Positions 1-41,756 are shown, numbered from the stretch's first letter. The stretch is DNA of 42,795 nt from a virus (IMGVR_UViG_2526164634_000009); one strand, 5' to 3'. Numbers and translations are program-made. The notes: generated by a model from the sequence alone, not told the origin.

Positions 1-267
1 GCTGATGATTCAGGAAAGTGGATGTTTAAGGATGGAGCTGTAGTTAAACGGATTTATACAGCAGACGAACAGCAACAACAGGCCGAATCACAAAAGGCCG
101 TATTGCTTTCCGAAGCTGAATCAGTCATCCAGCCGCTGGAACGCGCTGTCAGGCTGAATATGGCAACAGACGAGGAACGCACACGACTGGAAGCATGGGA
201 ACGCTACAGTGTTCTGGTCAGCCGTGTGGATACGGCAAATCCTGAATGGCCACAAAAGCCTGAATAA
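1..267 (+). CDS. Tail fibre assembly protein, alternative copy (Mu U'-like), 5' end outside window
   Basis: Frame open from position 1; C-terminal sequence [13 protein letters not shown]...EWPQKPE parallels the minus-strand Tfa at 296-829 ([13 protein letters not shown]...FPEQPE); opposite orientation as in invertible tail-fibre segments. Confidence 0.7.
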
Positions 268-272
268 AAATT

Positions 273-292
273 AAGGCCCGCTATCGGGCCTT
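273..292. terminator. Hairpin between convergent Tfa genes (AAGGCCCG-CTAT-CGGGCCTT), likely bidirectional terminator
   Basis: Perfect 8-bp stem, 4-nt loop, T-rich tract on minus strand after stem. Confidence 0.5.
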
Positions 293-295
293 GTC

Positions 296-829
296 TCATT
301 CAGGTTGTTCGGGAAATGTTACTGGCAGGCTGGAGGTGTCTGTAGATTCGACTTTCTGCGCATAGAGCATCCACTCAGTTAATTTTTGTTTATTCTCGTC
401 GGAAATGATGCCCAGCCGTAGCTGTGAGTCCCATAGCTGGGTTTTATCCCTGACAAGTTGCAACAGGCTTTGCTTTTCATTCTCTGCCTGCTGCCTCTGT
501 TCCTCCTCGGTATAAGTTCGCTTTATCACTACGCCATCTTTGAACATCCATTTACCCGAAATATCAGCCCGGCGATTTGCTGTAATATCAGGAACCTCAA
601 CGACGCTTGCGCCTTCTGGATTAATTGCTGAAACATCCTTTTCAATACAAATAATACCGTTGTTGTGGTCATAGACCATTTTCAACGTATCAGGCTGAAA
701 GTTCTTTTGTTCCTCATACCAGTTTTTCCCATCCTCTGTATAAAGCCATTTGATGTTAAATTGTTTCGTTAGCTGGTATTGCTCTTTTGTTTTAGGGTTG
801 CCAGCAGTAATATTTTTTAAGTGCATCAT
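296..829 (-). CDS. U: Tail fibre assembly protein (Mu U / Tfa family)
   Basis: 177-aa ORF directly downstream of tail-fibre gene; conserved Tfa C-terminal region. Confidence 0.8.
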
Positions 830-831
830 AA

Positions 832-2292
832 TTAAATACTCCCCGCGTTATACCACGTTCCATTAATGCAATACTGAATTGGCCTTGCCTGAGTTGTATC
901 AATTAATTCATCACGGTTTCCGTTAACTGAACCCGTAACGACATAACCTGACCTGTCAGACCAGCCGGGACCATTCCATGTCTGAACAGATGACAGACCG
1001 CCAAGGCGAATACCTGTAATAAACCTTGAGTTACATTCTGCCTGCGTATATGCTCCAACATCTCCCGCAGAGGGTTTGCGGGTTGTGGTGTAAAACTCTG
1101 ACCAGTCAGCTTCAAAGCCATAACCATCTCGCGCTGAACGATAATAAATACCGCCGTTCTTATAATTCACACGGAACTGAACCGCCGGGCAACTCCCCGC
1201 ATTCATATTAAAGTGAAGAATCAATGTTGACGCTCCACTAATAGTCGCATTATAAACGCCGCTATTTGAGTTCCATCCAACAGCTTTGTCATTTCCAACA
1301 GTGCTTCCTGTCTGCCCTAAAGCAAATGCAGGCTGCTGGTTTTTCGTGTTGTAGTCTCTTCGCCAGCCAGGAGCATAAGCATCACCATGATTAATATAAG
1401 TGAATTGAGCGTTAGTAATTCCGCCACCGCTGGACATGCTCGGGGTGGTTACACGGATGGTCATGGCACCTTTATTACCCATAACCTCAATAACGCAACC
1501 TGCAAGATGAATAGTTCCACAGCCAGTATCGGTAATAATTTTATTATTGCCGTATGACCATGAACATTTGCACATCCAGTATGGGTGATTGAATGCCCCT
1601 TGAGAATCCAGCCATTCAATCAATTGTGCCGTCGTCCAGTTTCCTGCACCTGTGCTAATAGCACCATGAAAAGAGCGGCAAGCACCTATTGTTTGCGTAA
1701 ATTTATCTTTGTTTGGAATATCTGCGCCGTTCTGGTTTTTCTGTAATGCGCCAGAAGCCTGATTTACCGTTTCCTGTAAACCGACGTTTTGGATAAACAG
1801 CGGCTTATTGGGAATATCTGCTCCGTTCCGGTCTTTTGCCAGACGAGCATTGGCATTATCCATCGCAATTTTCACCGCTTTTGCGGTGGCTGCCAACGTT
1901 TCACTGGGGCTGTCAGTGGCACTGGTTAGCTGAACGAGTCCTTTTTTGTTCAGGCTGGCATCATAGATATCCAGATTTTCACGTGCTGTACGCTGTGCTG
2001 ATGCCCCGGCAGTTTTAATTTCGCTGAGGTTATTTTTTATCAGCAGCGCGTTATTGCTCATAATGGCTTTAATGGACAGTGCAAGCTGGTTTAATTTTGT
2101 TTTATCCGGTTGAATACCGGCTTCTTCCAGCGTGTTTAATAACTCCGCCTGAACAATATTAAACCAGTCCATGCCGGGCCATGTGATAACATTATTCCCG
2201 TCACCTTCTGAAAACCAGCGAACGATAGCACTACGCTGGGCGGATACGGGCGGCATGACGGTTACGCCGCTGTCGTTATCAATATAAAACAT
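832..2292 (-). CDS. S: Tail fibre protein (Mu S-like; constant N-terminal part 2292-~1797, variable C-terminal part inside invertible segment)
   Basis: 486-aa ORF, Gly/Asn/Thr-rich C-terminal region typical of fibre tips, position after baseplate genes, gix-like site within ORF. Confidence 0.8.
1771..1796. other. gix/hix-like crossover site for a Gin/Hin/Pin/Cin-family serine invertase
   Basis: TTCCTGTAAACCGACGTTTTGGATAA: imperfect 26-bp dyad with AAACC / GGTTT half-site cores, matching remembered gix consensus at all but about one position. Confidence 0.6.
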
Positions 2293-4345: not shown

Positions 4346-4935
4346 TGCATTGGCCCCGTGGTTCCGCCGCTATCGCCACGGTGGATATGCTTATCCGTCG
4401 ATTTGCCATTGATGATGGCATCCGGGGCAGTAATATTGCTGTCGAACTGGCTTTTACCTTTAACGCCCAGACCTTTCTGGATCTCAACGTCGCCGGTAAA
4501 CGTGGTTCTGGGTGTGTCAACGGTCATACTTTCATCAGCGTAAACCTCAACCGTTTTACAGGTAATGATGCAGCGTCCGTCCTTTGTCAGCCTGATACGA
4601 TGCCCCTCGTGGTGGTAAATGCCAGCATCACCCGGTTCAAGATTTGTCGGGCGGTAGCGGCGGTCTTCCACCACAACGGCAATCCCCTGATCACGTTGTG
4701 CACCCACACAGGCAATCAGCGCCTCTGCGCCCGGCAGAGGAACGCTGAAATGCCCGTAATTTTGCAGGCGCTCCACTTCATCAGATTCCTCATCATCCAG
4801 CAGACCAACCTGCAGGTTCTGAACCTTTCGTCCGTCGTTAATCACGTTAACAACGGCACGCGCAAGCATCAGGCGCACACGACGCATCAGCGGCATCAGC
4901 AGGCGGTTCATGGCGGAATCATTTACTCTTTCCAC
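4342..4935 (-). CDS. Baseplate assembly/spike protein (Mu gp45-like, gpV-type)
   Basis: 197-aa ORF in conserved position. Confidence 0.65.
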   Translation of the reverse strand: MERVNDSAMNRLLMPLMRRVRLMLARAVVNVINDGRKVQNLQVGLLDDEESDEVERLQNYGHFSVPLPGAEALIACVGAQRDQGIAVVVEDRRYRPTNLEPGDAGIYHHEGHRIRLTKDGRCIITCKTVEVYADESMTVDTPRTTFTGDVEIQKGLGVKGKSQFDSNITAPDAIINGKSTDKHIHRGDSGGTTGPMQ

Positions 4936-6062
4936 GGCGGCGTTTTCTCCGGGTGTCTGCGATAATAATCTTCAACCAGCGCATCAATACCGCCGTTACT
5001 GTCGCCGCCTTTCCTGTTTTTACGGTCGCTTTCAACCGGCACCAGAAAGCCTTCGCGTGGTGCAAGGCTGACGCGGGTTTTCAGCCCGTCCTGGTCATTC
5101 AGTATCAGGGTGACTTTGCTGACCAGTAATTCCGTGGTTTTGATGGCATATTTCGAGGCATCAATAGTGACCAGCAGGTTCGGCATCCAGAGTTGCCCGT
5201 CCTTGCGAGTCCATCCGTCAATTTCTGCCTCAAAGGTGATGGATTTTGCCAGTCTGCGGCGTTGCTCACGCAGGGCGCGGGCCTGTGCATCCTTCGCCGT
5301 AATCTTGCTGTCAGCAATGATGATCATCGGTCTGTAACGGGTCACATCACTGTCAGTGGCGGTCCCTTTCCGGGAGACGATACTTTTCGCATCAATATCA
5401 TCACCCTCAGCACCATTTGCGCGGGCATACCCCTTGACGGTGTATTCGCTGAACCGGTCGCGGAAGTCTTCCTCAAAATCCAGCGTCAGCAGATTTTCTC
5501 CGAGAACCAGCTCATCAGTGGCTGTGCTGGCAGCCCGGCTGAATACCAGCTCTCCGGCGGCATTGCTGGTCATCAGTACACCGCGTGCGCGGGAGGCACG
5601 CACCAGCGCCTCATAAACGGTTTCTGAATGGTCCAGCGTGAAGCCGGGAAAAGCTGCCGAACTTTCCTTATCGGAAAGCTCCCAGCGAACGGTAACGCCA
5701 TAAGGAGCGCACAGGTCACGCGCAATCTGCTCCAGTGTGCGTTTTTTCCACTGTCCGCCACTGTAAACGGCAGCACAGTCAATCAGGTCAGCCGTTTTGT
5801 CACGTCCGGCGACAGTGATTTTCATACTGTCAGCGGTCATCTGGCGTCGCCGTGAATCGATATAACCGGTGCAGACAATCTGCCCCTCGATTTCGAGCGT
5901 GAACTTCTTCCCCGGAGCCAGCCCGGATAAATCCGTGCCCGGTGGCACGTTCACCCCCAGCTCAAAATATCCGGCTACGGATTCAATCGAGCGGGTGACA
6001 GAGACTGACGTCCAGCCGGTAAAAAGCCTGCCATCCGTTCGCAGCGTGACGGTATTACTCAT
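4923..6062 (-). CDS. P: Tail/baseplate hub protein (Mu P / late-control-D-like)
   Basis: 379-aa ORF immediately downstream of N-like gene. Confidence 0.7.
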
Positions 6063-6843
6063 TAATCACCTCAATACTGACACCACCGGGAACAAACAAC
6101 GGGTTGCTGATACCGTTCCTGCGGGCCAGCCGTTGCCAGTTCCGGCTGTTTCCTGTGTAACGGTACAGGGCCACCATTGCAGGCATCGTCTCCGGCAGGC
6201 GGTGCGTTTCACTGCCCGCCAGTTGCAGCCCGCGTTTTTCCAGGTCGGCAACAACCAGCAGACGCAGTTGCGTAAGCTGAACGCTGTCTGTCGAAAAGCC
6301 CTGCTCAGATGCCGTCAGAATGACGGTATCCAGTGCAGCCCCCAGCATGGCGGCTGTTTTTCCGATATCGGACACACTTTCAAATACCGGGGGCGTGGCT
6401 GTACCACTGTCTGAAAAGGATACCTGTGAAAAACCGCCGTCCGGGGTTATGGCAGTTAACTGTAACTGTCCCTGTGTGACGGTAGCGGATGTGCTGCTGG
6501 CCCCGATGGCTGTGCCGGTTGTGGTGGACGGGGCATCCAGTACAGGTGCACGGGCGGCATTATCCATCCGGCGACTGAAATCCAGTGCCGCAGTCAGTGC
6601 CTGGCTGGCAGCTTCTGCCCGGTATGTCTGCGCCGCTGCCAGCATGACGTAGTTCAGTGTGGCAATATTTTTTTCTGCAACCGGACTGTTGTACGAGGTT
6701 GTGATTGTCCCCTGTCTGCCTGCGGTGGCAGCATGGCGACGTTCGAATCGCTGCGCCAGACGGTTCCATGTGGAAAATGCTGTCCGGGTATCGCATAACG
6801 ATGAAAGTAAGCGTGCAGCAAGAACCGTATTGACGGGGATGTG

Positions 6844-8382
6844 TTATTCAGTCGGCAGTGCTACGCGCCAGGGGAGCAGTTCGCCGACCCGGTTTATCGG
6901 CCAGTCGGCTATGACGTCAAGGACATAGCGGAGGTAGCTTTCTGGCTCCACTCCGTTCAGTTTGCACGTCCCGATCAGGCTGTACAGCAGCGCTCCCCGC
7001 TCTCCTCCATGATCCGAACCGAAGAACAGGTAGTTTTTGCGGCCCAGACTGACCATCCGCAACGCATTTTCAGCGATGTTATTGTCCGCCTCAGCCCAGC
7101 CATCATCTGCATAGTACGTCAGCGCCGGCCACTGGTTCAGGGCGTATGCGAACGCTTTCGCCAGTTCTGAGTGTCGCGACAGGGTTTTCATCTTTTCACG
7201 CAGCCAGCTTTCCAGGGATTTCAGCAGCGGTTTCGTTTTCAACTGACGTTCGGCAAGGCGCTGCTCCGCCGTCATTCCCCTTATCTCTGCCTCGATGGCG
7301 TACAGTTCGCCGATCCGTTTCAGCGCTTCCTCCGTCAGGGCTGACGGGGTGCGAACGTGCACATCGTGGATTTTACGGCGGGCGTGAGCCCAACAGGCGG
7401 CTTCCGTTATCCGGCCATCCCGGTACAGCTCGTTGAACCCGGCGTATGCATCCGCCTGCAGTACACCACTGAACCCCGCAAGATGGGTCTGCGGATGGAT
7501 GCCTTTTCTGTCCGGGCTGTAAGCGAACAACACCGCCGGCGCCAGCGTTGACCCGGCGTTACGGTCGTCACGAACGTAGGTCCATAACCGCCCGGTCTTC
7601 GTTTTCTTATTGCCTGGCAACAGCACCGGGACAGGCGTGTCATCAGCATGGAGCTTACCGTCAGTCAGCACATAGTCCTGAAGCGCTTCTTCCAGCGGTG
7701 ACAGTAGCCGGCAGCATGCATCCACCCAGCCCGACAGCAGTGAACGACTCAGCTCCACGCCCTGGCGGCCGTACATTTCAGACTGGCGGTACAGCGGGGT
7801 GTGCTCTGCATACTTTGAGATCAGCACGCGGGCCAGCAGCCCCGGTCCTGCGATACCCCGCTCGATGGGCCGTGAAGGCGCGGGGGCCTGCACGATGGCA
7901 TCGCACTGAGTACAGGCATGCTTTTCACGTACAGTCCGGATAACCCGGAAGGCGCTGCGCATCAACTCCAGCTGTTCGGCGGCATCCTCACCCAGATAGC
8001 TCAGTGAGCCTCCACATTCCGGGCAGCATGATGCTGCCGGCAGCAGCCGTTTTTCATCGCGGGGGAGTGATTCGGGGAACGGTTTGCGGGTGCGGGTTTG
8101 ACGCAGCGGGCGCTGCACGGCCGGGTCGTCAACCCGACCGGTAAGGGTATCACTTTCTTTCTGAAGTGCCTTCAGGTCAGCTTCCATCTGTGCGATACGA
8201 CGGGAGACTTTTTCGGAGCGGCTGCCGAAGTTCATCCGGCGCAGCTTATCCAGCTGTGCCTGCAGATGGTCTATTTCGCGTTCACGCTCGTTCAGCTTTT
8301 CCAGCAGGGCACGGTTCAGCGCCTCCTGTTCGGCAAGGAGACGTTTCAGTGCATTGATATCGTCAGGAAGTGAGCTGCTCAT
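6844..8382 (-). CDS. tnpC: IS66-family transposase TnpC
   Basis: 512 aa; N-terminal coiled-coil, CxxC...CxxC zinc-finger segment, DDE-type core. Confidence 0.9.
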
Positions 8383-8430
8383 ACCGGGTATATTACCAGG
8401 CTCATTCAGCGTCGACCAGGATAAAGAGGC

Positions 8431-8778
8431 TTACAACATAGTCAGGGACGTAAGCAGTCTTTTAGGCTGCCGCCAGTCGATACCTTCCAGCAGCATCGCC
8501 AGCTGTGCCGGTGTGAGGAACACTTTGCCATCCCGGGCTGACGGCCAGGCGAAGCGGCCGCGCTCCAGCCGTTTGGTCAGCAGACACAGTCCATCGCCGG
8601 TAGACCAGAGGAGCTTTACCTGACTGCCATTACGCCCACGGAAGATAAAAACGTGACCTGACATCGGATCGTCTTTCAGCGTCGTCTGCACCTTTGCCGC
8701 CAGGCCGTTGAAGCCGTTTCTCATATCGGTGATGCCAGCGACCAGCCAGATCTTTGTCCCTGATGGTAATGGGATCAA
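8431..8778 (-). CDS. tnpB: IS66-family accessory protein TnpB (Orf2)
   Basis: 115 aa, MIPLPSGTKIWLVAGITDMRNGFNGLAAKV motif typical of IS66 Orf2. Confidence 0.9.
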   Translation of the reverse strand: MIPLPSGTKIWLVAGITDMRNGFNGLAAKVQTTLKDDPMSGHVFIFRGRNGSQVKLLWSTGDGLCLLTKRLERGRFAWPSARDGKVFLTPAQLAMLLEGIDWRQPKRLLTSLTML

Positions 8779-9179
8779 CGTTTGAGCTCCCGTATCAGCA
8801 GGTTCAGGATATTTTCGCTGATGGCACCATTCAGACGGAGTGATCCGTGCCGGAACGTCACTTCACAGCTGATATTGAGTGATTCAGGTGTCGCAGCAGC
8901 TACAGGTTGTGACCGGGGGGAGGTTGTAGGGACAACATCTTCGGCATCAAGTGTTATCGGGAGCAGCTCAGGCACGTTGTTTTCTGTTGTTGAAGGAGGA
9001 CGTAGTTTTCCTTCGCGCCAGTACTGGCGCCACTTGAACAGCAAATTATCGTTGATCCCATGCTCACGAGCGAGTTGCGCTACGGAGATCTCTGGTCGAT
9101 GCGAGAGTTCAACCATTTTGATTTTGAACTCAACGGGATAATTAGGGCTTTTTTTACGCACTGCGGTTAATGATTTCAT
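8775..9179 (-). CDS. tnpA: IS66-family accessory protein TnpA (Orf1), HTH
   Basis: 134 aa, overlaps tnpB start by 4 nt as in IS66 elements. Confidence 0.85.
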   Translation of the reverse strand: MKSLTAVRKKSPNYPVEFKIKMVELSHRPEISVAQLAREHGINDNLLFKWRQYWREGKLRPPSTTENNVPELLPITLDAEDVVPTTSPRSQPVAAATPESLNISCEVTFRHGSLRLNGAISENILNLLIRELKR

Positions 9180-10008
9180 GGATAGCGTCCACCATATTTG
9201 GTGTCCACTATTCTCTCAGGAATTTCAGGATCTGCCAGACGGTGCTGAGACGACGCTTACCGATGAAACGCCGGACAGCGCCCCCATCAGCGAGGAGGCC
9301 AGCATGGCAGGCTGGTTAATCAGGCTGGTCACAGAGCCTTTCATCGCAGAAAGCGATCCCATCAGACCGCTGACAGTCTGCGTAACCCCCAGATTGTCCA
9401 CCGCATCACTGATATCATCGATGACACCGGTTACAGCTTCCATCACGGCGGTTGCCGCCGCAGTGCCATCTTTTACGGTCTGCCAGACAGAGGACAGCGT
9501 ATCTCCCAGAGAACCGGTTACAGCAACGGCCTGTGCCGGTACGGCTGCACTGGTGTCTGTCTCTGCGTCCGGGGCAGTATCCTGCAACGACGGATAAACG
9601 GTAACGGTGAACGCGTAATAATTCAGTTCATCCGCTTTAGTGCGGCATTCCCATGAATCCACCATGACGTCCACAGTGCCGAAATCAGGATGTACCAGCT
9701 CACCGCTACCCGGAGCATCAAGAGCATCCATCAGCGCACCCGCTTCATCTCTGGCTGTTTCTGCGTTGCTGTTCAGAATGCAGGCGCTGAATGTACGGGA
9801 GCGAAGCTTTTTCCCCAGGTCATTGACGCCGCCGGTATCACGTAACGGGTACTCGCGTTTAACCAGGCGACGTCCGCCAGCCTGTTTTTGCTCCTCGATG
9901 ACGAGAAACGGCACGTTACGGAACGTGCCTTTGCCGGTTGTTTTCCTGCCTCCACCGGTTTTATCCCGGACAGCATTAACGACATTTAAAGCATCTTCAA
10001 ACATGGTT

Positions 10009-12081
10009 TTACCAGCCCGTAATGTAGTTATCGCCCGCGTAAATATTCAGCCCCATACCGTCCTCGGTGACGCGGGAACTGGTCAGACGTAACCCCTCGC
10101 CAAGTTCGACGCGCAGCGAGGCTTCCGCATTGACTTTTTGTTCCTGCGGTTCCTTATCCGTGGCCGTCCATTTCTGATACAGGTCGGTTACAAAACCGCC
10201 CAGATACTCCCCGGCGACACTGCCCAGCGTGGCACCGGCAACCGTACCCAGCGGTCCGGCAAGGCTGCCAACGGCACCGCCGAGCCATGCACCGGCTGTA
10301 CTGCCAATTGCGCCTGCTTTTTCATGGGTTGACGCCTGCTCATCCATCAGGACGGGGGCAAGCTGGAGTGCCCCCATTACCGGGCCACCCAGACGTGACA
10401 ACGCACGACCGGCACCTTTCCCCATCCAGCCCAGCGCCCCGGCACCTTTTGTCACAACCCGACCGATCGCACTGCCTGCAAGTTTGTTTCCGATACCGGA
10501 AAACCACCCGCCAGCGGCACGCCCGGCATCAGCCAGCTTTCCGACCGTTCCCGTAACCAGTTGCCCGGCAGCACTGCCTGCAAGCCTGCTCAGAAGACCG
10601 GATTTACCGGGTAAAGGTAATGGTGCAGGCCGTGCCGTTACCGGTACGCCGGGTGGGGGTAATGCCAGTACAGGGCGTGGTGCAGGTAATGCCAGCGGCT
10701 GTGGCCCGGACAGCAATAACGGCTGGCGGGGTAACAGCGGGGCCATTCTTCCGCCGCTCCGTACGCGACGACCGCCGCCACTCCCGTAGCCACCAAATCC
10801 ACGGGGCCAGTTGATGACAAACACACGCTGAATGCCGATACCCTGCAACAGCGTCTCAGACGTCATGGCATCCGGGACCGGCAGCCCTGCCTGCCCACGT
10901 TTGCGGTTTCGCATCCAGCGCCACATACGACGCCCGGTTTTAAACGGATAACTGGCAACCTGCCATGAGGGTTTTGCCACGGCCCAGCCTGCTCTCAGGG
11001 CTTTATTGGCAAGCCAGACAGACACCAGAACAGCAGCCAGTTTTTTCAGGCTGACAATATTCTGGTCAACCCATGCCAGCGCATCTTTACCCGGTTTCAG
11101 CCAGCGCCATAACTCCTGCGCCGCGATTTTTACCGTTCTGAACGTGGTCAGAAATTTCTGACCAATGTTTTCTGCCAGTGCGTCAAGTTCCCCGGATTTA
11201 TCCGCCATGTCGTGCCAGTTAAGCACCCGGCGCATCTCGTTCTTGATTTCTTCAAAGGGGCCGCTGTTTGCCACCTTTATGCGAAATTCAAGCAGGTTGG
11301 CTTCCATCTGGGCGAACATCCCGTCCCAGGAGTTCATCGCACTGGCCTGTGCACCTTTTGACTGTTCTGACAGCGTTCTGAATACCGTCAGAATGGATTT
11401 CAGGCCCAGCTTGCCCTTTGTACCCAGATCACGGATTTTTTTAACGTCCGTTCCCGTTGCATCCGCCAGCGCCTGATAAACGTTGATACCGTAACCGGTC
11501 AGCAGGTTGGCATCCGCCGCTGTGATTTGCTGGCGGGCAAACATCTGTTTCAGTTGCAGTGAGGCACCCTGGGCAGTGGGTAAATCCCAGCCGTGCATGG
11601 CCCCCTGATCCTGCAACATGGTGATGAACTGTTTCGTCTGTTCATCCGTCATGCCGAAGCCTTTCGACGAACGGATCTCATCCAGAACACCACTCAGCCC
11701 CCACGTGGTGTCCTTCGCGTTCTGCTTTGCCCAGGCCATCATGGCCTGCGCTCTGACCTTATCGCCGTGATACAGCGAGTTCATGGCGATGATCTGCTGC
11801 TCACGCTGGGCGGCTGCACCAATAAACAGTTTATTGGCGGTGTAACCCACGCCAGCGATACCCAGCGCCCCGGCTGACAGCATTCGGAATGTACGGGTTG
11901 ACAGTGAACCCATTCTGTCAATGGCACCAGAAACGCGCACAACCTCCATACGCAGGGCACGAAGGGAACTTTGCCCGCTACGGGACAGGGCGTTTATCTG
12001 GTTCGAATACTGGCGGGAACGCCGGGAAAGATTGCCATTAAGATCAATAATGACAGACGCCTTTAAGCGTTTCCCGGTCAT
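10009..12081 (-). CDS. Tail tape measure protein
   Basis: 690 aa, alpha-helical with Gly/Ala/Pro-rich segment, between tube/chaperone and N. Confidence 0.8.
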
Positions 12082-27227: not shown

Positions 27228-27617
27228 TTAAAACAAAGGGGGGGAACACTGACGATACTTTATACGCCGCATTCGTCGGATGGCTTTATAGACTGTGTTA
27301 AATGTCACACCATGACGGATTGCCAGTTCGTGAACATTGCGACCGTTGAAATCATTCCAGATACGCAAATCCCGAATAAGCGAATCCAGAACCTGACCGC
27401 GTGGAATGTAGACCTGACCGCCGCCCAGATGCTTACAGATAGCCACAACAATCTCCAGTGAATGGGCCGGGTCAACACCTAACCGGGACAATTCCCCGCG
27501 CAGTAAATCGTTCAGCTCCGCCAGCAGTGCCGGAAAGCGTGACGTATCCTCTGCGGGATTGTCAAGATGTGCCAGGATGGTGTCATCCTGCAAATCACCA
27601 AATAAATCTTCCGTCAT
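27228..27617 (-). CDS. mor: Middle operon regulator Mor
   Basis: 129 aa, same family as C, position after GemA. Confidence 0.85.
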   Translation of the reverse strand: MTEDLFGDLQDDTILAHLDNPAEDTSRFPALLAELNDLLRGELSRLGVDPAHSLEIVVAICKHLGGGQVYIPRGQVLDSLIRDLRIWNDFNGRNVHELAIRHGVTFNTVYKAIRRMRRIKYRQCSPPLF

Positions 27618-31930: not shown

Positions 31931-32168
31931 TTTGCGTCTCCTTATTGATTCTGAATAACTGCGCTGGCTTTTACCTTCGCGCCTTTTACCTGCTTAAAGA
32001 AAACCGCGCTGCACCACGGACAACATGCAAAGGAGTCCCATACTTCATTTTCTGGTGAGCATTGCGTCATAATTTGCTCTTTGCATTTGGGGCAATTAAA
32101 TGCAGTCAGAGCCACATTGTTATTCTGTACCCGTTTAACCCATTCAATATATTTTTCAGCTTTAGTAC

Positions 32169-33225
32169 GGCTTTGTTGAATAAATCAGATTTCGGGTAAG
32201 TCTCCCCCGTAGCGGGTTGTGTTTTCAGGCAATACGCACGCTTTCAGGCATACCTGCTTTCGTCATTTTGTTCAGCGCTCGTACCAGGGCCATAGCCTCT
32301 GCAACCTGACCATCGTAGTCACGCAGTGTCAGTGAACCTCCGAACAGCTGTTTTACCCGGTACATCGCCGTTTCCGCTATCGAGCGACGGTTGTAATCTG
32401 TTGTCCATTTCCACCGCGCATTACTCCCGGTCATTCGCTGATTAGCCACTGCACGGTTACGGTCTGCATATTCACCGGGCCAGTAACCCGCACCTTTTCG
32501 GGGAGGGATAAGGGCGCTGATTTTCTTACGCCGCAGTTCATCGTGACAGAGCCGGGTGTCGTAAGCGCCGTCTGCCGATGCTGCCCTGATTTTTCTGTGA
32601 GTCTGCCGGATAAGACCCGGGAAGGCTTCTGAGTCCGTTACGTTGTTCAGCGACAGGTCTGCACAGATGATTTCATGTGTGTTGCTGTCAACGGCCAGAT
32701 GCAACTTCCGCCAGATACGACGGCGTTCTTTGCCGTGTTTTTTGACTTTCCATTCGCCTTCACCAAAGACCTTCAGCCCGGTGGAATCAATCACCAGATG
32801 CGCGATTTCACCTCGGGTGAACGTTTTGAAACTGACATTAACCGACTTTGCGCGCTTGCTGACACTGGTGTAATCCGGGCAGCGCAACGGAACATTTATC
32901 AGTGTAAAAATGGAATCAATAAAACCCTGTGCAGCCCGCAGGGTCAGCCTGAACACGCGTTTAATGACCAGAACGGTGGTGATGGCGAGATCAGAATAGC
33001 GCTGAGGTCTTCCCCGTGATGAAGGCGTTGCCGACTCATACCAGGCCTGAATAGCTTCATCATCCAGCCAGAAAGTTATGGAGCCACGGTTGATGAGGGC
33101 TTTATTGTAGGTGGGCCAGTTGGTGATTTTGAACTTTTGCTTTGCCACGGAACGGTCTGCGTTGTCGGGAAGATACGTGATCTGATCCTTCAACTCAGCA
33201 AAAGTTCGATTTATTCAACAAAGCC
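32169..33225 (-). mobile_element. IS903-like element (IS5 family), 1057 bp, 9-bp target duplication CTTTAGTAC at 32160-32168 and 33226-33234
   Basis: Perfect 18-bp terminal inverted repeats GGCTTTGTTGAATAAATC, single transposase ORF, identical 9-bp flanking repeats. Confidence 0.9.
32225..33193 (-). CDS. tnp: IS903-type transposase (DDE); true start may be internal
   Basis: ORF contains FKITNWPTYNKALINRGSITFWLDDEAIQAWY region that I recognise as IS903 transposase. Confidence 0.9.
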   Translation of the reverse strand: MKDQITYLPDNADRSVAKQKFKITNWPTYNKALINRGSITFWLDDEAIQAWYESATPSSRGRPQRYSDLAITTVLVIKRVFRLTLRAAQGFIDSIFTLINVPLRCPDYTSVSKRAKSVNVSFKTFTRGEIAHLVIDSTGLKVFGEGEWKVKKHGKERRRIWRKLHLAVDSNTHEIICADLSLNNVTDSEAFPGLIRQTHRKIRAASADGAYDTRLCHDELRRKKISALIPPRKGAGYWPGEYADRNRAVANQRMTGSNARWKWTTDYNRRSIAETAMYRVKQLFGGSLTLRDYDGQVAEAMALVRALNKMTKAGMPESVRIA

Positions 33226-33240
33226 CTTTAGTACACATCG

Positions 33241-33483: not shown

Positions 33484-34422
33484 TTAATTACGCAGCAGCG
33501 TTGAAATATCAACGTCCAGGTCTAATTCACGGAAAGCCTGACGCAGATAATCTTCGTTAACACGCTCACCTTTACCGTGAGCCGTCATGGCGGCAAGGCG
33601 AAGTGAATGATTCAGAATGCGAAGCGCACCTGGTTTCTGCGCAATCTGCTGTAATAACTCCAGTTCTTTTTCACCGTTAATCTGCCAGGCATCCGCAATA
33701 GCTTTTACATCGGCTTTTTTGGTTTTATTAATTGCAGTGCGCTTTGCAATACGGGAAAACAGACGGGCAAATTCAACCGTTCTGTTACCCCCCGTCATAT
33801 TTGAATAAACCCGGTGATTTCCCATCAGCACAAGGCCAATACGGGTTGATTCCTGTAACAGGCGGAGTTCTTCCAGAACCTCGGCACCAAGATGATCAGC
33901 TTCGTCGATGATAACCAGCCCCTGTGTACCTTCAAGGCGACGTCGCAGGGCGCGGGAGAGCGGCCCTTTACGGCGTGGTGCGTCATTCATTCCCAGCTCA
34001 AACGCCAGTTCAGTAAGACATTCCAGAACGCTGGCACAGGATGGCGTAATGGTGATCATCCAGACATTGTTATTGGTGCGGCGATATTCACGGGCCGCTT
34101 CGGTTTTACCCACACCAGGATTGCCACATACAACAGCAATACTTTCAGTCAGGCTGGCAAAACGCATACTTGTCCAGATTTGTTTTACCGTCTGCGTTTC
34201 CACAAAGCGGGGCGGCTCAGGTAGTTCTGCAACTGCATGATATTTTTCCAGCCAGCGTTGCAGAATTTGTGAAACACGCTCGTTATCCCCGTTGTACTTA
34301 TCATTGATAAAACTACTGATAGTTCCGGTAGAAAGCCCGCTCTCAAGAGCAATTTGTTTAAAGGTGGTTTCTTCATTTTCTACAAGCGTGCGCAGTTCTG
34401 CGCGAATATCGGAAATATTCAT
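33484..34422 (-). CDS. B: Transposition ATPase B (MuB-like AAA+)
   Basis: 312 aa, Walker A GNPGVGKT, follows A. Confidence 0.85.
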   Translation of the reverse strand: MNISDIRAELRTLVENEETTFKQIALESGLSTGTISSFINDKYNGDNERVSQILQRWLEKYHAVAELPEPPRFVETQTVKQIWTSMRFASLTESIAVVCGNPGVGKTEAAREYRRTNNNVWMITITPSCASVLECLTELAFELGMNDAPRRKGPLSRALRRRLEGTQGLVIIDEADHLGAEVLEELRLLQESTRIGLVLMGNHRVYSNMTGGNRTVEFARLFSRIAKRTAINKTKKADVKAIADAWQINGEKELELLQQIAQKPGALRILNHSLRLAAMTAHGKGERVNEDYLRQAFRELDLDVDISTLLRN

Positions 34423-34460: not shown

Positions 34461-36554
34461 TTAAATGGCTTTTTTACGTCTGTTCTGTTCCAGAATATCC
34501 AGCGAATGATTCAGATATTCATCACGCTCAGTTTCGTATTCATCATCATGCTCTTCCTCACACCTCAACGGCTGAACGGTCACCACATTACCAACAGGGC
34601 GATAAACATTATCCAGCCAGGGTTCTATCGTTTTTTGTTCAATAACCTGAATACCTTCATCCTCAGCATCACGTATTTTTTCCTCAGCACGCTTGCGCAT
34701 TCCTTTAATACGTTGCTGTTGTTTGTGATATTCAGCCGTAACAGGAAAGGCTGCGCGTTTATTGCCGTTCCATATCGCCTCACAGATAAAGCTACCGTCC
34801 TTACGGCGTACCGTAATTCGCTCGGCATCGTGAATGTCATAGCTGATAAGTACCTTGCGACCATGTTCATCACGTAGCTCTGGCGCGTAGTAAATATTGT
34901 TCAGCCACTGGATTTCGCAGCGTCTTACCGGACGCTCCACCATCGGGCGGAACATGTCACGCAGCTCAATATCACTCAGCCACTCAATTTCAGTGTCTTC
35001 TTCCGCTAAGCGTTTTTTTCTGAACTCTGCCGGGCTGTAATGTTTTCCGTTTGGTTTCATCGGCAATTCAGAATGTGGGCGGTTGTTGTACCACTCCACC
35101 CCCTCACGGATAGCCTCAATCAGTTCTGACCAAGACGGCAGCTCGCGCATTGCGGCTTTCTGACGGGCGCTCAGTGGCTTGTCCTGTTGCAGGGCATTAA
35201 ACGCTGAACGCAGATCACGATTAAGTACTCGCAACGATTCCCGGTCAGCCCCCTTGCCGAAATAGGTGCGATACCTCCTTGCTATACGCATCGGTAACGT
35301 CCGGTTCAGGCGCTCAATAATGCCGCGTCCCTGCGGATTTCCCGCAATACCAGTGGGGTGGTTAATCCCCAGGCGGGGCAGAATCCCGACGATCTCTTTA
35401 TCCAGCATATCTGCCGTTTCACCGGAACCATTATCCGAGTAATACAGGAATGGTTTTCCGTGATTGCGAATGCCGTGTTGTATCGCCCCGGCAACAGCGA
35501 ACACGTTCTCCGCAAGATCAAGACTCCAGCCAACCACAAACCGGGTTCCACCGTCGATCACAAACGTAACTTCCGGTGAAAATGGACGCCCGTGAACCGG
35601 ATGCGCACATTTCAGCTTCATACCGTGACCGTCACCAATCCAGACATAATTCACCGGCATAGCTGTCCAGTCGCGGCGGGTGAATCCTTCAAGCTGACGG
35701 TATTCACTGCCGGTAACGCGCCCTTTTTGTTTCACCACTTCCGGCAGTTTTTTCATGGCATACCGGACAACATCATAGGAAGGCATCACCTCCAGCATGT
35801 ATGGTTCGTCCGCATGGCGACGCTGCCAATCAGCGACAAAATCCTCGTATGCTTCTGACATAGGCCTGCCGTTAGCCTGACGATACTGCGCCAGAAATTC
35901 AGGCAGCCAGCTAATTTCTTCCGGTTTTATTTCGTCGCGCTTTCCTGGTGCCAGTAACAGCAATCGTTCTGCGGCATTCTGTGCTTTGTTAAACGCAGCT
36001 ATCCAACGTTTGAGCGTAATTGCGCTCAGAGTTCGCTCTTTCCCTTTACGGGCATTAGCAGTAATGACCAAAGATTCCAGGCGTTCTTCCAGGTTACCCT
36101 GCGCTAACCGCGACACAATAAAACGTATAGCGCTGGCACAACTGAATCCCGGCTCCTGGCTAATTCGTAGAACTTCACAGACAAGAGCAATACGCGCTTC
36201 TGCAACTTTACGTTGATTTTCCGTAAGCGCATTCAGACGCTCTTCTACCAATTGTGGCGAACCGCGATATGCCTCAACAGGCTGTACAACATTTTGTTTG
36301 CGTTCACGCTTTACAGGAGGCTGGGTAGTTATCTCCTGCGGGGCGGTTGCCATCAGTTGAGCTACATGGCGCTCACGTAACGCCCGTTGTGTAACCGGAG
36401 GGAGGCAGTCGATGCTGTATTCAATGGTTTTTGAACCCGCACGTTTGCGCCTGAAATGCTCAGATGAGGCCAGTTTCCTTATGGAATACCGCACCCCTTG
36501 CGCAGTTCCCGGCATACCCGGTAGCCCTACAAGCTCATTAACTGACACAAACAT
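34461..36554 (-). CDS. A: DDE transposase A (MuA-like)
   Basis: 697 aa; C-terminal tail DDEYETERDEYLNHSLDILEQNRRKKAI matches Mu A as remembered, N-terminal DNA-binding region diverged. Confidence 0.9.
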   Translation of the reverse strand: MFVSVNELVGLPGMPGTAQGVRYSIRKLASSEHFRRKRAGSKTIEYSIDCLPPVTQRALRERHVAQLMATAPQEITTQPPVKRERKQNVVQPVEAYRGSPQLVEERLNALTENQRKVAEARIALVCEVLRISQEPGFSCASAIRFIVSRLAQGNLEERLESLVITANARKGKERTLSAITLKRWIAAFNKAQNAAERLLLLAPGKRDEIKPEEISWLPEFLAQYRQANGRPMSEAYEDFVADWQRRHADEPYMLEVMPSYDVVRYAMKKLPEVVKQKGRVTGSEYRQLEGFTRRDWTAMPVNYVWIGDGHGMKLKCAHPVHGRPFSPEVTFVIDGGTRFVVGWSLDLAENVFAVAGAIQHGIRNHGKPFLYYSDNGSGETADMLDKEIVGILPRLGINHPTGIAGNPQGRGIIERLNRTLPMRIARRYRTYFGKGADRESLRVLNRDLRSAFNALQQDKPLSARQKAAMRELPSWSELIEAIREGVEWYNNRPHSELPMKPNGKHYSPAEFRKKRLAEEDTEIEWLSDIELRDMFRPMVERPVRRCEIQWLNNIYYAPELRDEHGRKVLISYDIHDAERITVRRKDGSFICEAIWNGNKRAAFPVTAEYHKQQQRIKGMRKRAEEKIRDAEDEGIQVIEQKTIEPWLDNVYRPVGNVVTVQPLRCEEEHDDEYETERDEYLNHSLDILEQNRRKKAI

Positions 36555-36556
36555 TT

Positions 36557-36793
36557 TTATGCCACCTTACGAGCGTAACGGCTGGGCCAGATCTCCTCCG
36601 GCGCAACACCAATAGCATCAGCAATAATGCGCTCATATTTTGGGCATTTGCGGTACAGGGCATTCTTTAAAGAATCCTGGTTTAAACCGGCTTCAATGGA
36701 CAGAGAGCGTAAAGTAAAACCTTTTACATGCACCGCCGCGACAACATGCGCGGGGTGCCAGTCCTGTTTAACAACTTCATTTATAGACATCAT
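36557..36793 (-). CDS. ner: Ner-like DNA-binding regulator (start taken at internal ATG 36793)
   Basis: C-terminal IIADAIGVAPEEIWPSRY resembles Ner family; AAGGA RBS before internal ATG. Confidence 0.7.
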   Translation of the reverse strand: MMSINEVVKQDWHPAHVVAAVHVKGFTLRSLSIEAGLNQDSLKNALYRKCPKYERIIADAIGVAPEEIWPSRYARKVA

Positions 36794-36973
36794 TCGTTTA
36801 TCCTTAAAAGTTATCTGTGCGGATAACACCGCCGGATAATCTCTGCGGATAAAGTATTGATCCACATGTGGCGCATGTAAAGCAAAAATTTGATTTTCTT
36901 TTGCCTGATGTGGATCATCTGTGTTTTCTATTGAAATTATCCTTTTGTATCAATTAGATAAGAGGAAAGAAAA
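36794..36973. promoter_or_regulatory. Divergent early/repressor promoter-operator region
   Basis: Three CGGATAA repeats 13 bp apart (36818-36852) and inverted repeat TGATCCACAT / ATGTGGATCA (36858-36867, 36909-36918) between divergent ner and c. Confidence 0.5.
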
Positions 36974-37519
36974 ATGGATAAGCTGAAAGGAAAGTCACTT
37001 TCTTTGCCGGAAGTGACAAAAGAAAGTATCCCGGAGCGTTTGAGAGAATTAATTGGAAAAAGAAGTGTAAGGGCTGCTGCGAAAGATTGGGGGTTGTCTT
37101 TTTCTACTTTAAACAATTACCTGACGCGAGGTACTGAACCTTCACTCAGTGTGGCTCGGCAGATAGCTGCAATTGAAGGGGTTACTATCGAATGGATATG
37201 TGGATCACATGATGATTCATATGAGAATCACCCAATTTCAACTAACACGCATAATGAGAATACAAAACTCATTATGAACATCATTAACGCCTTGGATGCA
37301 AAGGATATTGAGCGACTATCTAAGACTCTTGCCCTCAATGGTGCTAAGTATCTGACTCAAATGTTGGAACCCGAAAATCAAGGCTTACTGCGTCTTGAAG
37401 GACGAAAACGTGTCGCCGCGCTGCTATTAGATGATTTACCTGATGAGCGTATCAGAGAGATTTTGGAAGAAATTGAGAGCAGCAAACTCTCAAGTAGTGT
37501 AAAATCGAGAGCGGGCTAG
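36974..37519 (+). CDS. c: Prophage repressor (c-like, HTH)
   Basis: 181 aa, divergent from ner, HTH-like segment near N-terminus. Confidence 0.7.
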   Translation: MDKLKGKSLSLPEVTKESIPERLRELIGKRSVRAAAKDWGLSFSTLNNYLTRGTEPSLSVARQIAAIEGVTIEWICGSHDDSYENHPISTNTHNENTKLIMNIINALDAKDIERLSKTLALNGAKYLTQMLEPENQGLLRLEGRKRVAALLLDDLPDERIREILEEIESSKLSSSVKSRAG

Positions 37520-37583
37520 TTCAATTAGCCCGCAGTGAACAGATTTTGAAGGCATTTAAAATGCTAAAATTGCAGTAACGCGT

Positions 37584-37745
37584 AGTATCAAATATTTTTT
37601 CGTTTTTAGCTTTCTTTGCGATGGTAGTATCAAATCGCATGTTGTGCGCATAACACTGTTTTATGTCATAACTGTTTGTTTTATCCCATCAAATCCCGTT
37701 TAATCCACTTTCCTCCCGGATTTTTCACCAGTATCAAATAATTTA
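37584..37745. repeat. Mu-like left-end attachment region with three AGTATCAAAT repeats (37584, 37626, 37730), candidate transposase-binding sites
   Basis: Spacing 42 and 104 bp mirrors Mu L3-L2-L1; adjacent tract (revcomp AAAAATCCGGGAGGAAAGTGGATTAAACGGGATTTGATGGGAT) resembles remembered Mu left end. Confidence 0.5.
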
Positions 37746-38077
37746 CCTCTCTATACGACTATGAGGAGAAATTGCTTATTGCCAGATGGGAACTGACAGC
37801 AGAACAGGCTGTTACACAGCAGTTAAAAAATGAGGTGTCAAAAGGAAAACTGATTGACACCGGGTTCTGTATTTTTGCCCTCAGTAAGCTGGCAATGGCG
37901 TTATCCAGTACGCTTGATTCCATCCCTTTATCCATGCAGCGACAGTTTCCTGATTTAACACCGCGCCATCTTGACCATCTGAAAACCATTATTGCGAAGG
38001 GGGCAAATCAGTGTGCGCGGGCAGGGGATAAATTACCGGATTTACTCGATGAATATATCAGAGCAACAACTGAATAA
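37742..38077 (+). pseudogene. nu1: Lambda-like terminase small subunit nu1, 3' fragment only (truncated by Mu-like prophage insertion)
   Basis: Frame opens only at 37742 after in-frame TAA; translated C-terminal part resembles lambda Nu1 C-terminus and overlaps A start as in lambda. Confidence 0.7.
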
Positions 38078-39977
38078 TATGATGGCTGCCGTTTCGGTTG
38101 CGCTGCAGCCTCTGGTCAGGGTTGTACCAATGACGGCAGTTGAATGGGCTGATCAAAATTATTATCTGCCTAAAGAATCTTCATATGGTGAGGGAGAATG
38201 GAAAACGCTGCCATTCCAGATCGCCATTATGAACTGTATGGGTAACGACCAGGTTCGCACGGTTAACCTGATTAAATCTGCCCGTGTTGGCTATACAAAG
38301 ATGTTGCTGGGGGTGGTCGGGTATTTTATTGAGCATAAATCCCGAAACAGTCTGCTTTTTCAGCCCACGGATTCTGCCGCTGAAGATTTTATGAAGTCTC
38401 ACGTGGAGGCGACGATTCGGAACGTGCCATGCCTGAAAGACCTTTCCCCATGGCTGGGTCGTAAACATCGTGACAATACTCTCACGCTGAAACGCTTTTC
38501 ATCGGGCGTCGGTTTCTGGTGCCTGGGCGGCGCTGCCGCCAAAAACTACCGTGAAAAATCCGTGGACGTGGTCTGCTATGACGAACTTTCCTCGTTCGAG
38601 CCGGATGTCGAAAAAGAGGGCTCGCCAACCCTGCTGGGGGATAAGCGTATTGAGGGGTCGGTGTGGCCAAAATCCATTCGCGGCTCGACGCCTAAAATCA
38701 AAGGCACCTGCCAGATCGAAAAAGCCGCTAACGAGTCGGCGCATTTTATGCGTTTTTATGTGCCCTGCCCGCACTGTGGGGAGGAGCAGTATCTGAAATT
38801 TGGCGATGAGTCCACGCCTTTTGGGCTTAAATGGGAGAAGGACAGCCCTGAAAGTGTTTTCTACCTCTGTGAACATCATGGCTGCGTGATCCATCAGTCT
38901 GAGCTTGACCAGAGCAACGGGCGGTGGATCTGTGAAAACACGGGCATGTGGACCCGTGACGGTCTGACGTTTTTCAGCGCCCGGGGTGATGAAATTCCGC
39001 CGCCGCGCTCCATCATGTTCCATATCTGGACGGCGTACAGTCCGTTCACCACCTGGGTACAGATTGTCTATGACTGGCTGGATGCACTGAAAGATCCCAA
39101 CGGCCTGAAAACCTTTGTGAACACCACGCTGGGCGAGACCTGGGAAGAGGCCGTGGGCGAAAAACTCGATCACCAGGTACTGATGGATAAGGTGGTGCGT
39201 TACACGGCGGCGGTGCCTGCCCGGGTGGTTTATCTGACGGCGGGCATTGACTCGCAGCGAAACCGTTTTGAGATGTATGTCTGGGGATGGGCTCCGGGAG
39301 AGGAAGCCTTTCTGGTGGATAAAATCATCATTATGGGGCGTCCTGATGAGGAAGAGACGCTGTTACGTGTGGATGCGGCGATCAACAAAAAATACCGCCA
39401 TGCGGATGGCACCGAAATGACTATTTCCCGTGTCTGCTGGGACACCGGGGGGATCGATGGTGAAATTGTTTATCAGAGATCAAAAAAACACGGTGTTTTC
39501 CGGGTGCTGCCGGTAAAAGGCGCATCTGTCTATGGCAAGCCGGTGATCACCATGCCAAAAACCCGCAATCAGCGGGGCGTGTATCTGTGTGAAGTGGGAA
39601 CGGATACCGCAAAAGAAATTCTCTATGCCCGTATGAAAGCCGATCCCACGCCTGCGGATGAAGCCACGTCGTATGCCATCCGTTTTCCTGATGATCCGGA
39701 GATTTTTTCGCAGACAGAGGCGCAGCAACTGGTGGCGGAAGAGCTGGTGGAGAAGTGGGAAAAAGGAAAGATGCGTCTGCTGTGGGATAACAAAAAGCGG
39801 CGTAACGAAGCGCTGGACTGCCTGGTGTATGCCTACGCGGCATTACGTGTGTCCGTGCAACGCTGGCAGCTTGATCTGGCTGTACTGGCAAAATCCCGGG
39901 AAGAAGAGACGACCCGGCCAACCCTGAAAGAACTGGCAGCGAAGCTGTCCGGAGGAGTGAATGGTTACAGTCGCTGA
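38049..39977 (+). CDS. A: Lambda-like terminase large subunit gpA
   Basis: Start at MNISEQQ (38049); conserved terminase blocks including VGYTKMLLGV, GDKRIEGSVWPKSIRGSTPK, WTAYSPFTTWVQIV. Confidence 0.9.
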   Translation: MNISEQQLNNMMAAVSVALQPLVRVVPMTAVEWADQNYYLPKESSYGEGEWKTLPFQIAIMNCMGNDQVRTVNLIKSARVGYTKMLLGVVGYFIEHKSRNSLLFQPTDSAAEDFMKSHVEATIRNVPCLKDLSPWLGRKHRDNTLTLKRFSSGVGFWCLGGAAAKNYREKSVDVVCYDELSSFEPDVEKEGSPTLLGDKRIEGSVWPKSIRGSTPKIKGTCQIEKAANESAHFMRFYVPCPHCGEEQYLKFGDESTPFGLKWEKDSPESVFYLCEHHGCVIHQSELDQSNGRWICENTGMWTRDGLTFFSARGDEIPPPRSIMFHIWTAYSPFTTWVQIVYDWLDALKDPNGLKTFVNTTLGETWEEAVGEKLDHQVLMDKVVRYTAAVPARVVYLTAGIDSQRNRFEMYVWGWAPGEEAFLVDKIIIMGRPDEEETLLRVDAAINKKYRHADGTEMTISRVCWDTGGIDGEIVYQRSKKHGVFRVLPVKGASVYGKPVITMPKTRNQRGVYLCEVGTDTAKEILYARMKADPTPADEATSYAIRFPDDPEIFSQTEAQQLVAEELVEKWEKGKMRLLWDNKKRRNEALDCLVYAYAALRVSVQRWQLDLAVLAKSREEETTRPTLKELAAKLSGGVNGYSR

Positions 39978-40167
39978 ACTGCAGGCGCTGCGTCAGGCGC
40001 GCCTTGATTTATTAACCGGTAAACGGGTGGTGTCTGTCCAGAAAGATGGTCGCAGAATTGAATATACGGCGGCTTCTCTGGATGAGCTTAACCGGGCGAT
40101 CAATGATGCGGAGTCGGTACTGGGGACAACCCGACGTCGCCGTCGTCCGCTGGGAGTGAGGTTATGA
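39961..40167 (+). CDS. W: Head-tail joining protein gpW
   Basis: 68 aa, between A and B. Confidence 0.8.
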   Translation: MVTVAELQALRQARLDLLTGKRVVSVQKDGRRIEYTAASLDELNRAINDAESVLGTTRRRRRPLGVRL

Positions 40168-41756
40168 AACGAACGCCTGTCCTGATTGATGTGAACGGCG
40201 TTCCGCTTCGTGAGAGTCTCAGCTACAACGGGGGCGGCGCAGGATTTGGCGGGCAAATGGCGGAGTGGTTGCCACCGGCGCAGAGTGTCGATGCGGCCCT
40301 GCTGCCCGCGTTGCGTCTGGGGAATGCCCGGGCAGATGATCTGGTGCGCAATAACGGGATAGCGGCCAATGCGGTGGCCCTGCATAAGGATCATATTGTC
40401 GGGCATATGTTTCTGATCAGCTACCGTCCGAACTGGCGCTGGCTGGAGATGCGGGAGACTGCGGCAAAAAGTTTTGTCGATGAGGTGGAGGCGGCCTGGT
40501 CGGAATACGCCGAAGGGATGTCTGGCGAGATCGACGTGGAAGAGAAACGCACGTTTACGGAATTTATTCGTGAAGGTGTGGGCGTTCATGCGTTTAACGG
40601 CGAAATCTTTGTGCAGCCGGTCTGGGATACGGAGAGCACGCAACTGTTTCGTACGCGTTTTAAAGCCGTGAGTCCGAAACGGGTGGACACGCCAGGACAC
40701 GGTATGGGGAACCGTTTTCTGCGGGCCGGTGTGGAGGTCGATCGATATGGCCGTGCCGTTGCGTACCATATCTGTGAGGATGATTTTCCTCGCTCCGGGA
40801 GTGGACGATGGGAACGGATCCCGCGTGAACTTCCCACCGGGCGTCCGGCCATGCTGCATATTTTCGAGCCGGTGGAGGACGGGCAGACCCGTGGGGCTAA
40901 TCAGTTTTACAGCGTCATGGAACGGCTGAAGATGCTGGATTCCCTGCAGGCAACACAGCTTCAGTCGGCCATTGTGAAAGCCATGTATGCAGCGACGATT
41001 GAAAGTGAACTTGATACCGAAAAGGCCTTTGAATATATCGCCGGCGCGCCACAGGAGCAGAAGGATAATCCGCTTATTAATATTCTGGAGAAGTTCTCCA
41101 GCTGGTATGACACGAATAACGTGACACTGGGCGGTGTCAAAATTCCGCACCTTTTCCCTGGTGATGATCTGAAACTACAGACTGCGCAGGATTCAGACAA
41201 TGGATTTTCTGCGCTTGAACAGGCGCTGCTGCGGTATATCGCCGCCGGTCTTGGCGTTTCCTACGAACAGTTGTCCCGTGATTACTCGAAGGTCAGTTAT
41301 TCAAGTGCCAGGGCCTCTGCCAATGAGTCGTGGCGCTATTTTATGGGGCGGCGAAAATTTATTGCGGCCCGGCTGGCCACGCAGATGTTTTCCTGCTGGC
41401 TGGAAGAGGCACTTCTTCGGGGGATTATCCGTCCGCCACGGGCGCGTTTTGATTTTTATCAGGCGCGATCAGCCTGGTCACGGGCAGAGTGGATTGGTGC
41501 CGGAAGAATGGCCATTGACGGGCTCAAGGAGGTTCAGGAATCGGTGATGCGCATTGAGGCCGGACTGAGCACGTATGAGAAAGAGCTGGCGCTGATGGGC
41601 GAGGATTATCAGGACATTTTCCGCCAGCAGGTCAGGGAATCTGCAGAGCGGCAAAAAGCCGGACTCTCACGTCCGGTGTGGATAGCGCAGGCGTATCAGC
41701 AGCAGATAGCGGAGAGTCGCAGGCCGGAAGAGGAGACAACACCACGTGAGACGTAA
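40164..41756 (+). CDS. B: Lambda-like portal protein gpB
   Basis: 530 aa. Confidence 0.9.
   Translation: MKRTPVLIDVNGVPLRESLSYNGGGAGFGGQMAEWLPPAQSVDAALLPALRLGNARADDLVRNNGIAANAVALHKDHIVGHMFLISYRPNWRWLEMRETAAKSFVDEVEAAWSEYAEGMSGEIDVEEKRTFTEFIREGVGVHAFNGEIFVQPVWDTESTQLFRTRFKAVSPKRVDTPGHGMGNRFLRAGVEVDRYGRAVAYHICEDDFPRSGSGRWERIPRELPTGRPAMLHIFEPVEDGQTRGANQFYSVMERLKMLDSLQATQLQSAIVKAMYAATIESELDTEKAFEYIAGAPQEQKDNPLINILEKFSSWYDTNNVTLGGVKIPHLFPGDDLKLQTAQDSDNGFSALEQALLRYIAAGLGVSYEQLSRDYSKVSYSSARASANESWRYFMGRRKFIAARLATQMFSCWLEEALLRGIIRPPRARFDFYQARSAWSRAEWIGAGRMAIDGLKEVQESVMRIEAGLSTYEKELALMGEDYQDIFRQQVRESAERQKAGLSRPVWIAQAYQQQIAESRRPEEETTPRET

Follow-up and report, generated by a model that had tools for sequence, protein, structure and literature searches.

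An apparently recent ISEc22 insertion splits tail gene N of a Mu-like prophage nested in a lambdoid prophage of Escherichia coli

In the cryo-EM structure of phage Mu, the product of gene N (gp43) is the hexameric initiator of the tail tube (PMC11915804). It combines an N-terminal tube-like domain with a C-terminal helix-rich domain that carries a LysM module and binds the baseplate wedges; both domains belong to one chain, are joined by a loop and contact the wedges, and the protein enters the cell together with the Mu DNA and circularizes it (PMC11915804). Amber mutations in N are annotated in X06796. Among the insertion sequences of E. coli, ISEc22 is listed as an IS66-family member of 2454 bp (PMC5001619), and an 8-bp direct repeat has been reported for it (PMC4048246). 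Mu-like phages of Shiga toxin-producing E. coli (STEC) have been described as inserted in other prophages, with 6 of 10 lying in mobile elements (PMC10132054). Here we describe a locus in which these three themes meet: an ISEc22 copy within gene N of a Mu-like prophage, which itself lies within a lambdoid prophage.

The DNA analysed, referred to below as the window, is a stretch of 42,795 nucleotides. Its most conspicuous feature is an element of 2454 bp that begins with GTAAGCGT and ends with ACGCTTAC (Table 1). The two ends form a terminal inverted repeat that is perfect for 8 bp, with imperfect similarity extending to approximately base 22 (..AG.ACCGT). On direct reading, the element is flanked by identical copies of CGATGAAA; the identity of the flanks covers 8 bases exactly, the ninth base outward being A in one case and C in the other. 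The forward 8-mer occurs at only these two places in the 42.8-kb window, and two given 8-mers would match by chance with a probability of approximately 1.5e-5. The initial annotation had claimed an intact 8-bp duplication around a 2454-bp element of the IS66 family with a tnpA-tnpB-tnpC triplet. The length, the end sequences and all coordinates and numbers given there are correct, the repeats are indeed identical up to a differing ninth base, and the family and the triplet are confirmed by the Pfam domains of three minus-strand ORFs and by identity to copies labelled as ISEc22 family.

The tnpB gene starts at a TTG that overlaps the stop codon of tnpA as TTGA, and the IS66 domains of TnpB and TnpC far exceed the Pfam cut-offs. 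For TnpC, the DDE_Tnp_IS66 match scores 357 bits and covers positions 1-283 of the 284 in the profile, accompanied by zf-IS66, LZ_Tnp_IS66 and DDE_Tnp_IS66_C. By megablast, many E. coli copies, on chromosomes and on plasmids, match the element at 100% identity over its 2454 bp, although assembly of a draft contig may merge several copies of a multicopy IS into a consensus interior, a matter of which the junctions are independent. RefSeq labels the identical copies "IS66-like element ISEc22 family transposase / TnpA / TnpB", which supplies the named isoform; the name thus comes from these labelled copies together with the published length and direct repeat, rather than from the ISfinder entry. 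The element is common: megablast matches are present in 4004 of 5426 complete E. coli genomes, with a best match of at least 99% identity in 1070 E. coli records and as many as 29 places in a single genome; relatives of the element are also found in Klebsiella, Salmonella, Enterobacter and Citrobacter. In its length, its three co-oriented ORFs in the order tnpA-tnpB-tnpC, its GTAAGCG-type inverted-repeat ends and its 8-bp duplication, the element shows no detectable difference from ISEc22, and only the insertion site is peculiar to this strain lineage.

The interrupted gene was restored in silico by deleting 6807-9268, i.e., the element and one repeat, so that 10004-9269 is joined to 6806-6055. 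This yields an ORF of 1488 nt (495 codons plus stop) made of two halves of 744 nt each, exactly as had been predicted from the two fragments, and places the duplicated bases at nucleotides 737-744 of the gene. The restored protein contains the DNA_circ_N domain (PF07157) with 91 bits, against a cut-off of 21, and tblastn aligns it with Mu N over residues 1-495 (NC_000929, 26208-27692) at 98.2% identity, with 9 substitutions and no indels; its D108, SfMu and Yersinia Mu-type phage orthologues are 98.6-99.2% identical (tblastn). The gene had been called N-like. Membership of the N family holds, yet the 98.2% identity, the DNA_circ_N domain and the flanking tape-measure and P genes show that this is Mu N itself rather than merely a relative. 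The length of 495 aa, the tape-measure gene upstream, P/gp44 downstream and an internal late promoter Pp are all as in Mu; the difference is that the gene here is split by the IS after codon 248. In the interrupted state, the frame of the 5' half stays open into the IS as far as 9225, adding 11 IS-encoded residues before a stop, so that the predicted truncated product has 259 aa (248 from N and 11 from the IS). The two half-genes labelled "hypothetical" are therefore a single N pseudogene. Uninterrupted alleles, the search for which had been proposed, do exist: two complete E. coli genomes, FDAARGOS_1059 and O111:H2 12A, have intact "DNA circularization protein" genes with 100% identity to the restored 1488 nt, and every one of 18 further listed genomes reaches at least 98.5%.

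Table 1. Coordinates of the features discussed, counted from the first base of the window.
Feature	Position	Strand	Details
P/gp44 baseplate hub gene	4923..6062	-	GpP/Gp44 domains; downstream of N and overlapping its end
3' half of Mu N/gp43	6055..6798	-	codons 249-495 plus stop; own start lost
Late promoter Pp	6397..6463	-	inside 3' part of N; 66/67 identical to AF083977 promoter feature 27287-27353
Target-site duplication CGATGAAA, left copy	6799..6806	.	sequence reading
ISEc22 (IS66 family)	6807..9260	-	2454 bp; genes co-directional with N
tnpC-proximal terminal inverted repeat	6807..6828	.	GTAAGCGT perfect, then imperfect to ~22 bp
tnpC, IS66-type DDE transposase	6844..8382	-	512 aa; PF03050, E 9e-107
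tnpB, IS66 Orf2-like	8431..8778	-	115 aa from TTG; PF05717 TnpB_IS66, 131 bits, E 1.6e-38
tnpA	8775..9179	-	134 aa; HTH_Tnp_1, 45 bits, E 9e-12
tnpA-proximal terminal inverted repeat	9239..9260	.	...ACGCTTAC
Target-site duplication CGATGAAA, right copy	9261..9268	.	sequence reading
5' half of Mu N/gp43	9261..10004	-	codons 1-248; PF07157 at residues 24-113
Tape-measure gene (gp42)	10009..12081	-	TMP_3; upstream neighbour of N
B	33484-34422		312 aa; intact ORF, identical to sister prophages
A	34461-36554		697 aa; intact ORF, identical to sister prophages

The prophage around N shares its gene order with Mu. Its middle and late regions (Mu coordinates 9832-31991) are approximately 98% identical to Mu at the nucleotide level and colinear after IS removal, and the G segment is present; the window begins inside this segment, in the G(-) orientation relative to the Mu reference, and gin, com, mom and the right end of the prophage, which transposition requires, lie beyond it. 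By contrast, nucleotide matches to Mu and D108 are lacking left of Mu position 3227; the leftmost 3.2 kb, with c, ner, A and the end sequence, resemble Yersinia phages vB_YpM_5/6 at 96%. The MuA-type transposase and the Mu/D108-type c, ner and att ends are thus lacking here, and the TG...CA termini and 5-bp duplication of Mu are probably absent as well, as judged from the left end in the window and from both ends in sister prophages. Like the Yersinia phages, these sisters, in FDAARGOS_1059 (NZ_CP066032), O111:H2 12A (NZ_CP077479) and JCKP02, share with the window both the Mu-type late region and the non-Mu c-ner-A-end module. The sisters carry no IS in N or gp6 and occupy other chromosomal sites (the ycj region, ppsR and mscM), whereas the present copy sits inside a lambdoid prophage.

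A second IS of 1057 bp is present at 32169-33225; its 18-bp ends read GGCTTTGTTGAATAAATC, and it is flanked by a 9-bp duplication, CTTTAGTAC. It encodes an IS5-family DDE transposase and matches other copies in E. coli at 99.5% identity, and we take it to be of the IS903 type. Its place in the early operon is between A-B-kil on one side and gam/mor on the other; directly downstream of kil, it interrupts the Mu gp6 homologue after codon 4. Given this position, any statement that early functions are intact has to be limited to the c, ner, A, B and kil ORFs, and polarity of the second IS on the downstream early genes is possible. The earlier claim that transposition genes A and B are intact stands in that both ORFs are full-length and do not differ from their counterparts in the intact sisters; A, however, is a MuA homologue of only 25% identity, in which the last approximately 30 residues alone are identical.

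Could the junction within N be an artefact, with a multicopy IS misplaced into the gene during draft assembly? The window is the complete draft contig AIHD01000025.1 (GCA_000250275.2), ISEc22 is multicopy in related strains, and the N::IS junction is absent from all 5,426 complete RefSeq E. coli genomes. However, a misjoin would not yield a perfect 8-bp duplication at both ends, removal of the IS gives back a perfect allele, and an exact-protein look-up finds the junction not only in AIHD01000025.1 but also in one other, independent draft assembly, GCA_002542395.1, whose right junction is the same, with 100% identity over 6821 bp that reaches 77 bp into the IS. The second-assembly junction and the target duplication together rule out misassembly, which we regard as hardly credible; the absence from complete genomes instead points to an allele restricted to a narrow lineage. 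A different concern is that the prophage might be an old, decaying or domesticated remnant, in which the IS would merely add to many lesions instead of marking a recent inactivating event. Two IS insertions in a single prophage, and the nesting of that prophage in another, disrupted one, would fit such a history, but the duplications of both ISs are perfect, and the restored N gene matches intact alleles at 100% identity. When the two elements are excised in silico, the prophage and its intact counterpart in FDAARGOS_1059 form a single colinear alignment of 34.2 kb (99.64%), and over 22.9 kb the cured window is 99.98% identical to this counterpart, with five mismatches; these are substitutions only, without frameshifts or truncated ORFs. 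The ORFs that differ have end-to-end counterparts of the same length in the cured window, with two exceptions: a variable tail fibre (486 versus 488 aa) and an overlapping mechanical ORF (74 versus 75 aa). Since the cured prophage is without other lesions, we reject old decay, which is very unlikely. The insertion is best read as recent, as had been suggested originally, because the element matches other copies exactly, the flanking repeats are perfect and the gene halves are unchanged relative to intact alleles. The Mu/lambdoid junction of the window is present in none of the complete genomes, and an isogenic empty site with N intact was thus not found, so the intact alleles come from sister prophages at other loci. 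O111:H2 12A was considered as a direct ancestor and rejected, its prophage in ppsR being a different insertion.

Granting that the insertion is genuine, it might still be functionally silent if the N fragments assemble or if a second Mu copy in the genome supplies N. The complete tube-like DNA_circ_N domain is still present in the N-terminal fragment, translation from an internal ATG at 6645 could produce a C-terminal piece of 196 aa, and the related strain 12A has two N-matching places; a second Mu copy outside the window could supply N in trans. Against this, the C-terminal piece would depend on read-out from the IS, lacking a promoter and a ribosome-binding context of its own, and the cryo-EM structure has both gp43 domains in one loop-joined chain contacting the wedges (PMC11915804). 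Complementation in trans would, moreover, leave this copy genetically N-defective, and we give silence only a slim chance. With the C-terminal half of N lost, functional tails and infectivity should be abolished, and this prophage almost certainly forms no infectious particles, judging from the published roles of N. Polarity of the IS on the genes P to U was weighed as an alternative main consequence. This was rejected, since Pp lies approximately 340 bp downstream of the insertion point; with the insertion upstream of Pp, the P-to-U operon remains under its own promoter and the loss is restricted to N.

Taken together, the sequence indicates that the insertion is real, recent and gene-inactivating, and we are highly confident in the overall reading of a recent ISEc22 hit in Mu N, with tails that are probably defective, Pp kept and the early ORFs intact. 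We propose that an active ISEc22 copy transposed into codons 246-248 of N (gp43) in the Mu prophage of this E. coli strain, and that fill-in of the staggered 8-bp target cut would have generated the CGATGAAA duplication. The event would be recent, with the IS, the duplication and both gene halves unchanged since. The truncated N protein would retain its N-terminal tube-like domain and lose most of the helix-rich/LysM half that makes the baseplate-wedge contact, and on the published roles of N the prophage would no longer build functional tails or infectious virions. Direct damage would be confined to N, with the P-to-U baseplate and fibre operon retaining its promoter. The repressor, ner, A, B and kil ORFs are intact, and there is a second and independent insertion, of the putative IS903 type, in early gene gp6.

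The left end of the Mu-like prophage is at 37755, and beyond it lie lambdoid head genes for the terminase large subunit, portal and an S49 protease. By comparison with an uninterrupted lambdoid prophage, the Mu insertion is at approximately nt 187 of the 510-nt small-terminase gene. The arrangement is therefore an IS within a Mu prophage within a lambdoid prophage. The STEC phages (PMC10132054) likewise include transposable phages nested in lambdoid prophages; however, they are Sp18-like, and their N homologue is approximately 42% identical to the restored N described here.

The ends of this prophage type deserve separate comment. In the window, the left end reads TATAGAGAGG inward, and the sisters, in which both ends are seen, have TATAGAGAGG... 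on the left and ...GCGCGCTTTA on the right, i.e., TA...TA termini. The sisters in ppsR of 12A and mscM of JCKP02 are both simple insertions with 4-bp duplications (CGCG and TAAG, respectively), and the empty sites, when reconstructed on the assumption of a 4-bp duplication, agree with native ppsR and mscM at 396/396 positions. Classical Mu makes 5-bp target duplications. The 4-bp duplication and the TA termini accompany the divergent A protein and have no bearing on the IS finding.

For this prophage, the practical consequence is that it should be scored as tail-defective, and the value of the finding lies mainly in annotation. ISEc22, Mu N and the knockout of a prophage structural gene by an IS are already known biology, and IS traffic that inactivates prophages in pathogenic E. 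coli is well documented. Wider interest attaches only to the alternative transposition module of this Mu lineage, with its 4-bp duplications. A tentative and rather doubtful extension is that the N::ISEc22 prophage represents an undescribed hybrid Mu lineage with a heterologous repressor-ner-transposase-end module, of which this copy could persist as an intracellular transposon. If this were true, the hybrid would combine the virion and late module of Mu with an A protein 25% identical to MuA, TA...TA termini and 4-bp duplications, and, having lost its tails but with c, ner, A, B and kil intact, this copy would be a purely intracellular transposon that may still reshape other prophages.

The Mu-type prophage is nested in a lambdoid prophage. 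Its left end adjoins a small-terminase gene that is broken at approximately nt 187 of 510, and beyond this cut gene lie those for the terminase large subunit, the portal and an S49 protease, all intact. The A protein (697 aa) has 25% identity to MuA, except for the C-terminal approximately 30 residues, which are identical. The prophage termini, taken from the ends of sister prophages at loci L007 and L009, are TA...TA. A 5-bp target duplication is typical of Mu, whereas 2 sister prophages have target duplications of 4 bp (CGCG in ppsR and TAAG in mscM), as checked against the native ppsR and mscM genes. The intact sister prophage of E. coli FDAARGOS_1059 lies between two truncated genes, one for an SDR oxidoreductase and the other for a ycjP-like permease, and therefore does not represent a simple insertion; these flanks suggest that the ycj region of this strain underwent a Mu-associated deletion or rearrangement.

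Coordinates of prophage features and flanks
Feature	Location	Remark
Contig start within G segment	window 1-2292	
Second insertion sequence	32169-33225	1057 bp; site with flanks, window 32160-33234
c-ner-A-end module	window 34461-37755	unlike Mu/D108
Lambdoid prophage	window 37755-42795	host of the Mu prophage
FDAARGOS_1059 prophage flanks	L002 13734-14302; L003 3420-3602	

The window is an entire draft contig and starts within the invertible G segment, which is in the G(-) orientation with the Mu reference as standard; the variable part of the tail fibre is only approximately 91% to 92% identical to its counterparts in Mu and in the sister prophage. The contig lacks gin, com and mom as well as the prophage right end, probably owing to an assembly break at the invertible repeat.

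The second insertion sequence, of the IS903 type, has 18-bp inverted repeats (GGCTTTGTTGAATAAATC) at its ends and is flanked by a perfect 9-bp duplication (CTTTAGTAC). It interrupts, after codon 4, the homologue of the Mu early gene gp6 (E5), located directly downstream of kil in the early operon, and might exert a polar effect on the expression of gam and mor.
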